A DNA stretch of 64,000 nucleotides from a virus. Its lineage: Duplodnaviria; Caudoviricetes. Where the stretch lies: positions 1-64,000 of IMG/VR virus record IMGVR_UViG_3300005805_000060. One strand, written 5' to 3'. Position 1 is the stretch's first letter; every line of letters starts with the position of its first letter. The notes under the pieces are model-generated. The model did not search any database and was not told the origin of the DNA. It was given only the letters and a program-made list of their open reading frames with translations. Positions 6,749 through 32,551 of the stretch are shown in pieces. The translations under genes were made by a program, and so were the position numbers.

Positions 6749-7048
6749 TTAGCTCATCAATATTTTCTTCTCAGGCACACGCAGACCGGTGGTAGCTTCG
6801 ATGTATTTCACTCGCACTGATTCATCGGTGAGCACATGCATGCTGATACTATGAGTATTTATAGTAACTGGTTCTCGTGCATCTGCGGTGAACAGGCTAG
6901 GAACCAACCCCATGCCCTGAGGTCCAGGGGCTATGCTGACCGGTTGCTCGGCCATGACATGACCTGTGGCCACATCAGTGATCTTGGCCACCAATTCTTC
7001 TCCACTGCCCAATTTGATAGTGTAGATCTCGCCTGCTTTTATAGTCAT
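6749..7048 (-). CDS. Conserved phage hypothetical protein (possible Sm-like fold)
   Basis: TIKLGSGEELVAK N-terminus seen in T4-like phage hypotheticals (from memory). Confidence 0.6.
   Translation of the reverse strand: MTIKAGEIYTIKLGSGEELVAKITDVATGHVMAEQPVSIAPGPQGMGLVPSLFTADAREPVTINTHSISMHVLTDESVRVKYIEATTGLRVPEKKILMS
6856..6863 (-). promoter_or_regulatory. T4-type late promoter TATAAATA upstream of the PAAR operon
   Basis: Exact TATAAATA about 110 nt upstream of the PAAR start. Confidence 0.6.
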
Positions 7049-28252: not shown

Positions 28253-28281
28253 ACTATAGAGTAGATAAGGTAAAAAGTCAA
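28253..28281 (-). promoter_or_regulatory. Sigma70-type promoter TTGACT-17-TATAGT
   Basis: -35 at 28276-28281, -10 at 28253-28258; ATG 6 nt downstream. Confidence 0.7.
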
Positions 28282-29126
28282 GTAGTCATCCAGTCTAGCC
28301 GTTCGTGTGTAAACGGATAGTGTGCGTCTTTGTAATAGGCCTTGCGCTTGGTCAAGTGACGTTTGGCAAATTTACAGGTGCTGGTCACATCCCAGATCTG
28401 CACATAATCTTTGTCTTCAGCTTTGCGAATGCCACGACCGATGCTCTGAATAACACGCACAAAGCTCTTGCCAGGCTCCACCAGCACAAGATTAAAAATA
28501 CGGGGAATGTTAATGCCCACTGCTGCAACACCGTAGGTGGCCACAATGATCTTGTCTGTCGCTTCCGCCACTTGGTCATAGTGATCCTGCCTTTCTAGAG
28601 ACTTGGTAGCGCCGGATATGAATACTGCTCGGTCGCCCAGGCGCTCTACCAAGGCCTGTCCCGCAGCCACACGATCTACCAAGACCAGGGTATTGCCGGT
28701 CTCGTTCACGCGCTGTATCAGCTGAGCCATGGTGTCCAGTCTACCAGATTCTTCCAAGAGGTATTTAAGCTCACTTTGATAGTTCGAGAATTCTACTGGA
28801 TCTACCAGCTGTACCACGTTCACGTGACACTGAGCCAAAACTCCCCGATCTTGCAGTTCGGCAGCGGCCAGGCGATGTATCACGGGGCCCAGGCTCACAT
28901 GTATGGCCTGGAACTCAAAATCTTCCTTGGGTATGGTACCAGTGAGCCCCCAGCGAACAGGCACTTGCGACATCACTCCCGTGAGCAGAGTCTTGAGAGC
29001 ATCGGCTTTGGCCATGTGACAATTGGATACTACTGCACCATTGACAACGTAATTGTGATCCTCTGCCACATGCAGATTGAACACCTCAATTGGTTTTTCA
29101 ATCTCGGTTCTTTTTACCAGCTTCAT
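28278..29126 (-). CDS. uvsW: UvsW helicase piece 3: 35-aa C-intein plus C-extein
   Basis: MKLVKRTEI...VFNLHVAEDHNYVVNGAVVSN then CHMAK..., GLTGT, VGINIP and QSIGRGIR SF2 motifs. Confidence 0.93.
   Translation of the reverse strand: MKLVKRTEIEKPIEVFNLHVAEDHNYVVNGAVVSNCHMAKADALKTLLTGVMSQVPVRWGLTGTIPKEDFEFQAIHVSLGPVIHRLAAAELQDRGVLAQCHVNVVQLVDPVEFSNYQSELKYLLEESGRLDTMAQLIQRVNETGNTLVLVDRVAAGQALVERLGDRAVFISGATKSLERQDHYDQVAEATDKIIVATYGVAAVGINIPRIFNLVLVEPGKSFVRVIQSIGRGIRKAEDKDYVQIWDVTSTCKFAKRHLTKRKAYYKDAHYPFTHERLDWMTT
29022..29126 (-). mobile_element. Split intein IntC (UvsW site 2, canonical short C part)
   Basis: Block F/G similar to DnaE-type IntC; terminal Asn35 and +1 Cys. Confidence 0.9.
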
Positions 29127-30015
29127 ATATTTTCCTTATTTTGCGAGCAGTGCTAGCATCAAATCTGGTATAATCACAAGGCTCCGGATGATTACATAAC
29201 CAGGTCTGATCAACCAAATTGAGTTGAAATCCGTTTAGCTGGGACCAGTCCCTCAATGCTTTTATTTTGGCATCAAATTTTGAACCACAGCATAATTCCT
29301 TGGGCTTTATCTCTGCTACCGTTTTGTTTTCATAGTCAACAAAGTCTACAATATAAACCTTGTTGGCTCCTTCAAATTGATATTCAATCCTGAGTTTTTC
29401 ATAACACGCTGTTGGTACGTGATATTGATACAGTGTCTCCCAACTTGATCTATATCTAATTCCATCCAATGTAGATTGCCAGTGTGTATTTCTGTTATTG
29501 GAATTTGGAGTGAATGTTCCCTCAAGTATTCGGGATTGCATGAGCCGTGATCGGTACTTTTTGTCTTTGTCTGACATAGATTTGCCGTACATTCCATTGC
29601 CTGCTCCTGAGTTTTTTCTGGCAATCGCATCTTTCACCGACTGTGGTCGAGGGCCAAGAGATCCAATGGCCTGACCTTGGGTGCCTGCGTTCCATGATCG
29701 GCCGGTGTTGAGATTTTTTCTAATTTTTGAACCATGCTTAATCTGGCACACTCGCCCCCCAGCTGCTGATAGTAATGATTTGATTTCTTTCTCAGTACAA
29801 GTGCCGGCCAATAATGAATCTATGTTAGATACCCATTGATGAGTTCTTGAATTCATAACACGTTTTTTGAACTTAGTAAAATCATTGCCCGATAACCTGT
29901 GTCCGGTAGATAAGACAAGAAACCCAAGACCAAACTCTATTACCCTTGTTACCTGTCCAAATTCTAATAGACGACTGTTCAAACGTTCAATCCATTGCGC
30001 ATAACTGATTTTCAT
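29098..30015 (-). mobile_element. Free-standing homing endonuclease (TnsA-like PD-(D/E)XK with NUMOD3-like motif)
   Basis: NGMYGK, YRSSWE, YIVDFVD...EIKPK; AT-rich; GAGG SD before the ATG at 30015 (ORF open from 30036). Confidence 0.8.
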
Positions 30016-30028
30016 AAATACCTCTGCT

Positions 30029-30325
30029 TTAGTCAAGCGTATTTATGATTTCGTGCTGATCTGTGAGTTCGTCGGCACGGCACCATCCCAGATTAGTAAA
30101 AAATTTGTGGTTTCCGGTTACTTCAACTTGCATACCATTATCAAATTCTAACCGATACATTCTTTCTGTCAGCGACGTGGTCAAGTTACAATGCTGTTTG
30201 ACTATCACATCTTCCTTAAACTTTTTGGTTTTTTCGCAGTAATTGATTACGCGGTTACCGGCCTGCAGATCACGGATTGGTACATACCCGTCAGGAGTCA
30301 GCACCGGAGTATCACCCGCAAAACA
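30029..30325 (-). mobile_element. Split intein IntN (UvsW site 2, 98 aa)
   Basis: CFAGDTPVLTPDG block A, TGNH block B, W.RADEL, then stop. Confidence 0.92.
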
Positions 30326-31009
30326 TTCATCAACTATGACGCAGACCACATCTTTCAGGAATTCCTGGATGGTGCAATCGGCATCTCCATCGCGGCCGGC
30401 CTTGAGCAGCACATTGAGACTCTGCCAGGTACAAATGGTGTGTTGGCATCCCCACTCCTTGCGATCTCCAAAATACACGCCCACATCTAGACCCATGTTC
30501 ACATAGTCTCGTTCGGTCTGAGTGACCAGACTCTTGTTGGGTACAATCACGATGCTTCGCCCATACGGTGTCACACGATCACTCAAGGCCGCAGTCATGA
30601 TGGTGTTGTGGTGGATCAACCCATTGGCATCTACGTACAAGTGAGGGGCATCAATGGCTATATCAAAACAGTCTTGATTATCCATGTGAGATATCTCTGT
30701 TACTGTTATTTTACCATTGAGGTGATCAACTGTTGATCCAACAGATAAATCTCCTGCAAAAATATCCCTGCCGTATTGTTGGAGGATATGTTGTTTTGCG
30801 ACACGTATGGAATAATCGGTGTCAAAAGTCAGATTAACCATTGGTAAATCAAACTTTTTTATAAGATGACTTACCTTTGCTTCCTTGTTTGGTGTTGGGA
30901 CGGAGATTGCTAGCTCGCCAATATCTAATTCAACATTGTCTGACAGATCAGTTGATTTAAATTCTTCAACGTATGCTGCAAGTTTACCAATCGATAATTT
31001 TACTTTCAT
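30029..31009 (-). CDS. uvsW: UvsW helicase piece 2: long C-intein, 93-aa middle extein, N-intein
   Basis: ...DANGLIHHN|TIMTAAL...VIVDE|CFAGDT...TGNHKFF; ATGA-coupled to the upstream endonuclease. Confidence 0.93.
   Translation of the reverse strand: MKVKLSIGKLAAYVEEFKSTDLSDNVELDIGELAISVPTPNKEAKVSHLIKKFDLPMVNLTFDTDYSIRVAKQHILQQYGRDIFAGDLSVGSTVDHLNGKITVTEISHMDNQDCFDIAIDAPHLYVDANGLIHHNTIMTAALSDRVTPYGRSIVIVPNKSLVTQTERDYVNMGLDVGVYFGDRKEWGCQHTICTWQSLNVLLKAGRDGDADCTIQEFLKDVVCVIVDECFAGDTPVLTPDGYVPIRDLQAGNRVINYCEKTKKFKEDVIVKQHCNLTTSLTERMYRLEFDNGMQVEVTGNHKFFTNLGWCRADELTDQHEIINTLD
30605..31009 (-). mobile_element. Split intein IntC (UvsW site 1, atypical long C part, 135 aa)
   Basis: Contains block B-like His (AKQH), block F (CFDIAI) and terminal HN; +1 Thr. 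Confidence 0.88.
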
Positions 31010-32013
31010 TTGATAAAATCCTTGCATTGTTTCACAGTGTTTTCGGGATCCAGAGTATATTCGTGTTCCCAGATCACCAACACTTGATACCCGTTGTCTT
31101 GCAAATCTTTGACTTTTTTGGCATCATGATCCCAGATGTCGGCCACTGTCTTTTTCCTCACCTGGTGTGATCCAGCATAAAATTTTGGGTTTCCGTGCCA
31201 GTAGTCGCCATAGTATTCTATGATCTTTTTACCATATAAAAAGTCAACACGGTGTACTTTTTTCTTTCCTCGAACGGTTTTTTCATTGGGGCCATAATAG
31301 CCAACTCCTAGATTTTCAAATAGTTCAAGGGATCTTTTGCTGCGATTAGCCACCATTCTCTTGTTACCATCTGAATTTAGCCATCGCTCGATTCGTTGAT
31401 TGAATAGGTCTTCACCAGCGGCCCCATATTTTCTTTTATAAAACTCAATCCCATTGGTGGTTTGGATCTCTCTCACTTTGTTCGCGGCCTCCTCCGGTGT
31501 ATGACCTTGCCTAATCCAATACTCGTGAGATCTAGCGGAGAATCCCCGAGAACCTTTCTTTGATGCCGGGGATCTAGACGATCTCTCTCGTTGAACCATC
31601 AAGACTTTTTCTAAAGCCTGAGTCTCAGAAAACCCTTGGTTGGTCCAAAAGTTGATCGTGTTCGGAAACCCTTTGCTCTTTTCTTGATTGGCCAACATCA
31701 TTGCCAACTGAGTCTGGCTGGCAGTAAACATGCACTCTAGTTTACTTGCTTTCATCAGGTTAGTACCATCTTTAGAACATTTACACATGAGTCGAGCCAA
31801 GAAATTTCCGCGCCATATTCCAAGAGACAATTTGGTTCCGCACTTGTAACAGGTGCGGGTGCCTATTTCTAATCCTGATCTTATGAAATGTCGACTGGCA
31901 TAAACTGGTGCATCCACAAAGTCGATTAGATTCCATTTGTTGATGTTGTTTAGAGTGCATAATCGCAACCAACTTTTTTTAGCAAACTTGGTTGTTATTT
32001 CTTGTAACGTCAT
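31006..32013 (-). mobile_element. Free-standing Vsr-like (EDxHD/DUF559) homing endonuclease
   Basis: VDF...IEYYGDYWHGNP...DAKK...GYQVLVIWE; AGGAG SD; AT-rich. Confidence 0.85.
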
Positions 32014-32107
32014 TACCCTGCTCCTGTTGTAATTTATTTATGATAAATTTACCAAAAGAAGAGTTTTCGTCAATCTCTAGACACAACTCAGTATCCCCTG
32101 CTAGGCA
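31979..32107 (-). mobile_element. Split intein IntN (UvsW site 1, atypical, at most 42 aa)
   Basis: CLAGDTELCLEID block A begins inside the Walker A (GK|T). Confidence 0.85.
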
Positions 32108-32551
32108 CTTGCCCGCGCCGGTGGCAATCTCCTGAAGACTCTGTAGATTGGTCAAGAAGTTGTTGATGACCACAACTTGATAGTCGCGCAGCATTATGGG
32201 CTCGCCGGCCTGGGGATGTCCTTGGGGCCATACCCGATCTGCAAAGCTGCCTTCATGCACTGGTTCTAGGGCAATGCGTGAGCTGTAGGTACGCTGATCA
32301 TCAAGATCAATGTCGTAGTCAAATTCCTCTAGCACAGGCAATATTTCTGGCAAGAGATTGGTGTAACTGCTACCGCCCAACTGAAAAAAGCTCACACATC
32401 CATCCCAACGTCCTAGACGCACTGCTGGCAGATAGCGGGCATATGGCACCTGATACTTGAACTTCTTTACCAGAGCTCGACGAGCATCAAGGTCGAGTCC
32501 TTCAATCTTGCAGTTGACTTCGTCACGAATTACTATAGTGGCTTTTTTCAT
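31979..32551 (-). CDS. uvsW: UvsW helicase piece 1: N-extein plus short N-intein
   Basis: WDG.V.FF, LRDYQ Q-motif, ATGAGK then CLAGDT; stop 42 aa later. Confidence 0.93.
   Translation of the reverse strand: MKKATIVIRDEVNCKIEGLDLDARRALVKKFKYQVPYARYLPAVRLGRWDGCVSFFQLGGSSYTNLLPEILPVLEEFDYDIDLDDQRTYSSRIALEPVHEGSFADRVWPQGHPQAGEPIMLRDYQVVVINNFLTNLQSLQEIATGAGKCLAGDTELCLEIDENSSFGKFIINKLQQEQGNDVTRNNNQVC

Follow-up and report, generated by a model that had tools for sequence, protein, structure and literature searches.

In a 64,000-nucleotide stretch of phage DNA (Caudoviricetes; IMG/VR record IMGVR_UViG_3300005805_000060, positions 1 to 64,000; hereafter the window), the minus strand carries a gene for a UvsW-like helicase that is broken by a split intein, which we call intein 1. 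The two halves of the intein flank a free-standing endonuclease open reading frame (ORF), and the locus thus has the arrangement of a “fractured gene”, in which split-intein halves of one host gene surround such an ORF. Our analysis indicates that intein 1 is probably split in the loop between strands β2 and β3 of the HINT fold (the S1 position), and that its N-terminal fragment (IntN1) carries a conserved, putative docking helix whose codons probably double as expression signals for the endonuclease. The host would be a T4-type UvsW gene interrupted in the Walker-A loop (GAGK/T, where the slash marks the insertion point) by a class 1 intein that was itself split by the endonuclease gene. IntN1 appears to consist of three parts: residues 1–13, which would form the β1-β2 core with Cys1; residues ~17–27 (FGKFIINKL), a putative family-specific amphipathic helix inserted in the β2-β3 loop; and residues 28–42, a likely by-product of the ribosome-binding site (RBS) and overlapping start codon of the endonuclease.

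A preliminary description, made from the sequence alone, had laid out intein 1 correctly, and translation of the minus-strand ORFs reproduced all of its features and coordinates. The ORF at 31979..32551 ends in ATGAGK, the end of the UvsW N-extein, followed by CLAGDTELCLEIDENSSFGKFIINKLQQEQGNDVTRNNNQVC and a stop codon. IntN1 itself is 42 amino acids (aa) long (32107–31982), with the Cys1 codon at 32107–32105. The endonuclease gene starts inside the IntN1 tail, with its ATG in codons 32–33, and its stop codon overlaps the ATG of the C-terminal intein fragment (IntC1) as ATGA. The ORF carrying IntC1 opens with MKVKLSIGKLAAYVEEF..., and the fragment runs from MKVKLSIGKLAAY to ...LIHHN, where the junction to T+1 of the extein (TIMTAAL) lies at 30605. 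The IntC1 start residue is identical in four related loci (L001–L004), none of which shares the ATG that lies further upstream, at 31027. The same layout, with the endonuclease between the intein halves, is found in five related loci, i.e., the window and L001–L004. These five loci, the IntN clusters (at least 65) at the Walker-A site and the 278 profile matches described below argue that the arrangement did not arise by chance.

A conserved predicted helix in the N-terminal fragment

Natural IntN variants were surveyed in a list of 120 homologues of the UvsW N-fragment, counting an IntN where one occurred at GxGK/C. Among the matches listed, at least 65 clusters carry an IntN at this Walker-A site, and the motif F18-x-x-F21-[LIVM]-[LIV]-N-K-[LIM] is kept in 65 of 65 variants. 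The variants are 25–60 aa long, except for a single entry of 19 aa that breaks off within the motif (...AFG) and is taken to be cut off. The shortest ones end just past the helix motif, for example in ...FADFVLNKK or ...FYKFLINKIKK. The motif is also present in two split relatives that lack the endonuclease. In one of these (L012), the IntN is 27 aa long and ends in EFAKFVNKKLN and a stop codon; its motif codons (AAG TTC GTT AAC AAG AAA CTC) differ from those in the window, and ATAAATA is absent. In the other (L010), the IntN ends in ...SDFKEFLNKTRGNYEN and stops at residue 30. A relative hosted by UvsX/RecA (L014) has DDFYQYLKS at the helix position.

Contiguous relatives were found with an IntC1 profile, which was searched against 1.84 billion representative proteins and matched 278 of them at E ≤ 0.001. 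The best 150 of these 278 matches comprise 55 representative clusters that are clearly IntC-first and whose starts differ by no more than a few residues, 20 contiguous inteins, and 75 partial alignments only. (A homologue search with IntC1 alone at near lengths gave no match, because the real proteins consist of IntC plus extein and are longer. In the phage GenBank collection there was no DNA match, and the protein matches were two, both distant.) The nearest contiguous relative of intein 1, P0003, occupies the UvsW site and reads CLRGDTLITINVDEDTYFGKFVTNKLSTYPKH-IKITIGLLAEY from block A to β3. Five others (P0004, P0014, P0006, P0011 and P0020) have an F-x-x-F/Y-h segment at the same place. 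The segment is absent from P0005, P0112 and P0018, which keep β3 and α1, and likewise from P0038, while the I-x-I-G-x-L element is present in all contiguous relatives compared. The F-x-x-F segment is therefore best described as an insertion in the β2-β3 loop that is optional in distant relatives.

The AlphaFold model of P0003 (predicted local distance difference test score, pLDDT, of 79) has the order β2 (residues 156–161), a helix (166–175, YFGKFVTNKL; block pLDDT 90 and 78), β3 (181–185) and α1 (186–197). The P0003 intein resembles solved inteins at Z scores of 14–18 overall: 145 of its 164 residues align with the RadA intein (Z 18.1), and 142 of the 145 residues of the VidaL intein align with it (Z 18.0). 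By arithmetic from these counts, the 19 P0003 residues left unaligned to RadA would be the helix and its loop.

Since the motif is kept in all of the listed variants, in endonuclease-less relatives with other codons and in contiguous relatives, the helix segment is evidently under selection at the protein level. In nature, the functional IntN probably comprises residues 1 to ~27, and residues 28–42 look dispensable for the protein, as they are variable or absent in relatives. An IntN of the ~15–16 aa seen at other S1 splits is not what this locus has, with 42 aa encoded and residues 1–27 conserved.

The preliminary description had proposed a functional IntN of perhaps ~13 aa (CLAGDTELCLEID), followed by a tail that doubles as promoter and RBS of the endonuclease. 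In its strict form, this would make residues 14–42 a passenger peptide dictated solely by the promoter, RBS and start codon of the endonuclease, which we consider unlikely. Residues 1–13 and IntC1 together make up a whole HINT fold, the contiguous relatives P0005, P0112 and P0038 do without the helix segment, and S1 fragments of 11–16 aa work in other inteins (PMC13014065). The tail is also constrained at the nucleotide level, since it holds CATAAATA, AGGAG and the ATG (see below). However, none of the 65 listed natural variants falls below 25 aa once the cut-off entry is set aside, and all have the motif. Split relatives without an endonuclease retain it in other codons and without the promoter motif, contiguous relatives without an endonuclease keep FGKF, and AlphaFold predicts a confident helix at the segment in P0003. 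Neither the ~13-aa length nor a purely regulatory role of residues 14–27 is therefore supported.

A comparison of the 42-aa IntN1 with the PDB using phmmer gave only a match to the N-terminus of RNA polymerase α (FGKFVVEPLERG), at a chance-level E value of 1.3. In this match, LEIDENSSFGKFIINKLQ (window 32050–32068; IntN1 residues 10–33) resembles the bacterial sequence IEISEDAKFGKFVVEPLERG of PDB entry 8x6f.

Position of the split in the HINT fold

IntC1 was modeled with AlphaFold on a five-sequence alignment (pLDDT 75). The model has a helix at residues 7–18 followed by a β-rich body, and structural alignment with VIA-align matched it to ~45 entries of solved inteins at Z scores of 9–12. The output of the fold search consists of alignment ranges without residue pairs. 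Throughout the ~45 solved inteins, model residues 1–3 fall opposite chain residues 11–16; the start of IntC1 corresponds to residue 12 in Npu DnaE, 12–13 in Ssp DnaB, 11 in gp41-1, 12–13 in RecA and 14 in RadA, where the alignment covers 132 of the 135 IntC1 residues. The match to 6dsl_B, the IntC of the Cat intein, which is split after α1 (the S2 position), is limited to model residues 20–135. IntC1 thus carries ~19 residues, corresponding to β3 and α1, that are absent from an S2-type IntC. In contiguous relatives inserted at the same site, the first residues of IntC1 align right before the I-x-I-G-x-L element.

Because the alignment of IntC1 runs from chain residues 11–16 onward, the fragment keeps β3 and α1 (KVKLS-IGKLAAYVEEF). 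On the evidence of these models, the break in intein 1 is in the β2-β3 loop, at the S1 position, and α1 is carried by IntC. This agrees with the preliminary description, which had placed the split near the engineered S1 position and had KLSIGKLA opening IntC; when aligned to HINT structures, that segment falls inside the fold as β3/α1.

We also weighed the possibility that intein 1 has an S2-type split like those of the AceL and GOS TerL inteins, with FGKFIINKL (residues 18–26) as the canonical α1 and IGKLAAYVEEF of IntC1 as an extra duplicate. SFGKF does resemble SIGKL, and the distance from the motif to Cys1 is presumably the same as that of α1 in mini-inteins, judging from the Npu DnaE sequence. 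Furthermore, HMMER alignments to gp41-1 and VidaL leave out IntC1 residues 2–18. In the P0003 model, however, the FGKF helix is followed by a strand-helix pair (181–197), and alignments of the whole intein with RadA and VidaL still reach Z 18, leaving ~19 residues over. FGKF is missing in some relatives, the I-x-I-G-x-L element in none; the polar ENSS stretch ahead of FGKF is unlike a β3 strand; and the S2-type CatC chain has no counterpart of IntC1 residues 1–19. An S2 split is thus very improbable. The canonical α1 does not appear to lie on IntN, with some doubt attached, as this assignment comes from alignment ranges rather than residue pairs.

The N-terminal placement given by phmmer and hmmsearch against VidaL and gp41-1 was judged unreliable in this region, given the VidaL-like protein P0149 (MFEENVITIGELRDL), which favours the structural alignment over the HMMER one. 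An hhalign comparison of the intein-1 family with canonical N-halves of the intein-2 type aligned block B alone and gives no assignment of α1.

Putative endonuclease expression signals in the IntN tail

The DNA encoding the IntN1 helix and tail is far more conserved than its surroundings. Mean pairwise DNA identity in the five loci is 65% for the extein and 61% for IntN codons 1–13, rises to 87% for codons 14–27 and 85% for codons 28–35, and is 64–69% for the endonuclease gene and 66% for IntC1. CATAAATA, AGGAG and the endonuclease ATG all lie within this conserved island. Invariant residues in codons 14–35 use one codon each in the five loci, including a six-fold degenerate Leu (TTA), a four-fold Val (GTT) and Thr (ACA), whereas extein and block A residues use two to four codons in the same loci. 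Co-conversion or recent transfer was rejected as the origin of the island, in view of the low identity (61–68%) of the endonuclease body and of the flank on either side.

The window has 10 copies of ATAAATA (at 6862, 16718, 20557, 25707, 30014, 30046, 32041, 36154, 52867 and 58984), compared to 4.4 expected, and nine of the ten lie 6–25 nt upstream of an ATG, including those of both endonuclease genes (30046–30040 before the second). This suggests that ATAAATA marks the late promoters of a T4-like phage, and CATAAATA upstream of the endonuclease fits a predicted T4-type late promoter. AGGAG is conserved in three of the five loci, the remaining two having GGGG or GGTGG, and a predicted hairpin (z −2.2) pairs the RBS with codons 16–18. 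The preliminary description had already read the IntN tail as doubling as the endonuclease promoter and RBS, and the high identity of the DNA that carries CATAAATA, AGGAG and the ATG supports such an overlap.

Both IntN tails in the window read I-I-N (FIINKL and HEIINTLD), with codons ATC ATA AAT A forming CATAAATA 22–25 nt upstream of an endonuclease ATG; in the intein 2 relatives L002 and P0003, IIN is kept even where the endonuclease is gone. We also noted that the DNA for GKFIIN (window 32035–32053) matches that of the rejoined extein junction GK/TIMT at 11 of 18 bases, counted by eye, a resemblance that is not kept in the endonuclease-less L012 (FAKFVN).

Proposed mechanism

After translation, the IntN core would pair with β3 of IntC1 and complete the HINT fold, while the conserved hydrophobic face of the helix (F18, F21, I22 and L26) may pack onto IntC1 and add binding energy. 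Trans-splicing would then join ...GAGK to TIMTAAL... and restore the P-loop. The helix DNA would be used twice, with CATAAATA in I22-I23-N24-K25, AGGAG in Q28-E29 and the ATG in codons 32–33. With these signals in the helix and tail codons, the endonuclease is probably expressed from its own late transcript, and the hairpin may mask its RBS in read-through uvsW mRNA.

Several points weigh against this explanation. Docking of the helix on IntC1 is deduced from conservation and pLDDT only, and the equation of the 19 extra P0003 residues with the helix is based on alignment ranges, not residue pairs. Some distant contiguous relatives are without the helix, which is therefore dispensable to the fold in cis. 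The HMMER alignments to VidaL and gp41-1 put their β3/α1 opposite IntC1 residues ~25–35, not 2–18, in conflict with the structural alignment. The single-codon argument is weakened by an AT-rich codon bias, and none of the 15 hairpin pairs shows compensatory changes in the five loci.

A bolder version of the S1-loop explanation may be offered tentatively. The cut in intein 1 might represent a third natural split mode, located after a dedicated amphipathic “clasp” helix within the β2-β3 loop and neither right after β2 (S1) nor after α1 (S2). The clasp would give an IntN of 25–28 aa high affinity for its partner. Its codons would also spell the late promoter of the endonuclease and one arm of an RBS-masking hairpin, and intein and invader would then share a single 40-nt stretch. 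We regard this extension as possible, at somewhat less than even chances.

Organization of the locus

The features of the uvsW locus are listed in Table 1. Beyond IntC1, the protein continues with helicase motifs and then reaches a second intein, which has a conventional split (intein 2).

Table 1. Features of the uvsW locus, in window coordinates.
Feature	Coordinates	Strand	Basis
N-extein of the UvsW-like helicase, 148 aa, with Walker-A ATGAGK at its end	32108..32551	−	Translation; homologues, some with PF21241 UvsW_N; aligns with full-length UvsW-like proteins
IntN1 core, codons 1–13 (CLAGDTELCLEID), block A, predicted strands β1-β2	32069..32107	−	P0003 equivalents form strand 156–161 and align from residue 1 of solved inteins; DNA identity 61% in five loci
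IntN1 codons 14–27 (ENSSFGKFIINKLQ), predicted family-conserved amphipathic helix, β2-β3 loop insertion; DNA also includes the promoter motif for the endonuclease and, in a possible hairpin, the 5′ arm	32027..32068	−	Conservation and AlphaFold model of P0003; DNA identity 87%
CATAAATA, T4-type late-promoter-like motif, codons I22-I23-N24-K25	32035..32042	−	ATAAATA survey; 22 nt upstream of ATG
AGGAG, putative RBS of endonuclease 1, codons Q28-E29	32021..32025	−	Sequence; 7 nt upstream of ATG 32013
IntN1 codons 28–42 (QEQGNDVTRNNNQVC), tail apparently set by RBS and overlap with endonuclease N-terminus	31982..32026	−	Variable or absent in relatives; lengths 25–60 aa
Homing-endonuclease-like gene 1, free-standing, 335 aa	31006..32013	−	Weak Pfam and PHROG matches; between the halves in five loci
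IntC1, 135 aa: β3 and α1 (KVKLS-IGKLAAYVEEF), rest of HINT fold, block B AKQH, terminal HHN	30605..31009	−	AlphaFold, structural alignment, VidaL profile match
Middle extein (T+1 IMTAAL ... VIVDE), helicase motifs I to II	30326..30604	−	Translation; ResIII match; alignment
IntN2, 98 aa, conventionally split second intein at DE/xH box	30032..30325	−	Intein_splicing 6.5e-11; NpuDnaB intein 3.5e-6
Endonuclease-like gene 2	29098..30015	−	phrog_15427 “endonuclease” 2.7e-25; CATAAATA 25 nt upstream (30047–30040)
IntC2 (35 aa, 29022–29126) and helicase C-extein (CHMAKAD...)	28278..29126	−	Helicase_C 1.6e-8; alignment

IntC1 is a HINT domain, and intein 1 has the fold and the residues of a class 1 intein (Cys1, H74, HHN and T+1); splicing itself is predicted. 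Cys1, the block B His (H74 of IntC1), the last two residues of IntC1 (His-Asn) and Thr+1 do not vary among the five loci, which have diverged to 54–61% identity. It is therefore most improbable that intein 1 has decayed and no longer splices, with three UvsW pieces that are inactive or assemble without covalent ligation: block B reads AKQH, with Ala in place of the usual Thr, and non-covalent assembly is known for the fractured NrdA product of phage Aeh1 (PMC3045599), but dozens of intact variants occur in metagenomes, and with the break inside the P-loop a non-ligated protein would be unlikely to bind ATP.

As regards the Vsr-like and GIY-YIG families of fractured-gene endonucleases, endonuclease 1 gave only C-terminal matches to PF18741 and DUF559, both weak and below the cutoff, and PHROG matches to phrog_22677 (1.6e-14) and, weakly, to phrog_13076 “endonuclease” (1.7e-4).

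For intein 2 (window 28278–30325), every evolutionary state occurs among the relatives. It is split with an endonuclease in the window and L003, split without one in L002 (9 nt between the halves), absent from L001 and L004, contiguous in P0004, and in P0005 (798 aa) its IntN2 is fused in frame to an endonuclease. In L010 (Logan SRR28113954, 703–2635), both the N-fragment and IntC-extein genes contain in-frame TAG codons that need to be read as Gln, which indicates that this contig comes from a stop-codon-recoded phage.

Comparison with known split inteins

Natural atypical inteins are split at two positions, S1 directly after β2 and S2 after α1 (PMC13014065, 2026). The natural S1 examples are VidaL, with a 16-aa IntN, and PolB16 OarG, with 15 aa (PMC13014065, PMC10189870); the S2 examples are AceL TerL (25 aa) and GOS TerL (37 aa), and the span given for natural IntN fragments is 15–37 aa (PMC13014065). 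The preliminary description had held that intein 1 is split earlier than the known atypical inteins, with IntN fragments of 25–37 aa as the benchmark. That benchmark is out of date because the natural S1 splits of VidaL and PolB16 had been published (PMC13014065, PMC10189870). A natural S1 split is thus already known and not new, and the claim that the locus has a 13-aa natural IntN shorter than that of all known inteins does not stand.

VidaL (PDB 6vgv) is matched by the intein-1 family profile at E 7e-10 and, of the small structures, matches P0003 best. Like intein 1, it is split in the β2-β3 loop, has α1 in IntC and comes from phage-type metagenomic DNA. Identity is only ~21–23%, and the VidaL-like P0149 has a RecA/UvsX-type P-loop with Ser+1, not UvsW. 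VidaL also has a longer β2-β3 linker, which is cut near its start, giving the 16-aa IntN and leaving ~9 leader residues on IntC. Intein 1 is cut where the linker ends, which leaves the helix on IntN (27 conserved aa) and only one residue ahead of β3 on IntC. Intein 1 further differs from VidaL in having an extra hairpin after α1, as in RadA. PolB16 OarG (PDB 8cpn), whose natural atypical split lies directly after β2 (PMC10189870, PMC13014065), aligns structurally at Z 13.9; unlike intein 1, it is cysteine-less (Ser1/Ser+1), has a PolB host, and its 15-aa IntN is without a helix extension.

The 25–37-aa IntN fragments of AceL TerL and GOS TerL are close in length to the 27 conserved residues of intein 1, and these inteins also come from phage or metagenome sources, GOS TerL from the fractured-gene data set. 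They carry the canonical α1 on IntN (PMC13014065), whereas in intein 1 α1 is on IntC and the IntN helix is additional. The engineered S1 split of Ssp DnaB M86, with an 11-aa IntN, has the same structural cut (IntC1 residue 1 equals DnaB residue 12–13), but is artificial and has no helix on IntN.

Fractured genes with promoter-containing hairpins have been described (Dassa et al. 2009, PMC2677866). As in intein 1, a free-standing endonuclease ORF lies between the halves, in the same orientation, and is preceded by a late-promoter element in a hairpin that may mask the RBS; relatives that have lost the endonuclease occur in both cases (here site 2 of L002, L010 and L012). UvsW is absent from the host list of that study (0 occurrences), and its inteins, unlike intein 1, are conventionally split except for the terminase ones (PMC2677866).

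Significance

Short IntN fragments are wanted for semisynthetic protein labelling, and the published natural set is small, comprising two S1 splits and two S2 splits with IntN fragments of 15–37 aa (PMC13014065). If the IntN helix docks on IntC as proposed, natural forms of 25–28 aa, such as CLSGDTDIEILIDEKSDFYKFLINKIKK, may join easy synthesis to better affinity than that of 11–16-aa peptides. The locus is a member of a large, untapped phage intein family cut in the S1 loop, and it offers a clean case of DNA that is constrained in two ways at once, by the intein helix and by the endonuclease expression signals.

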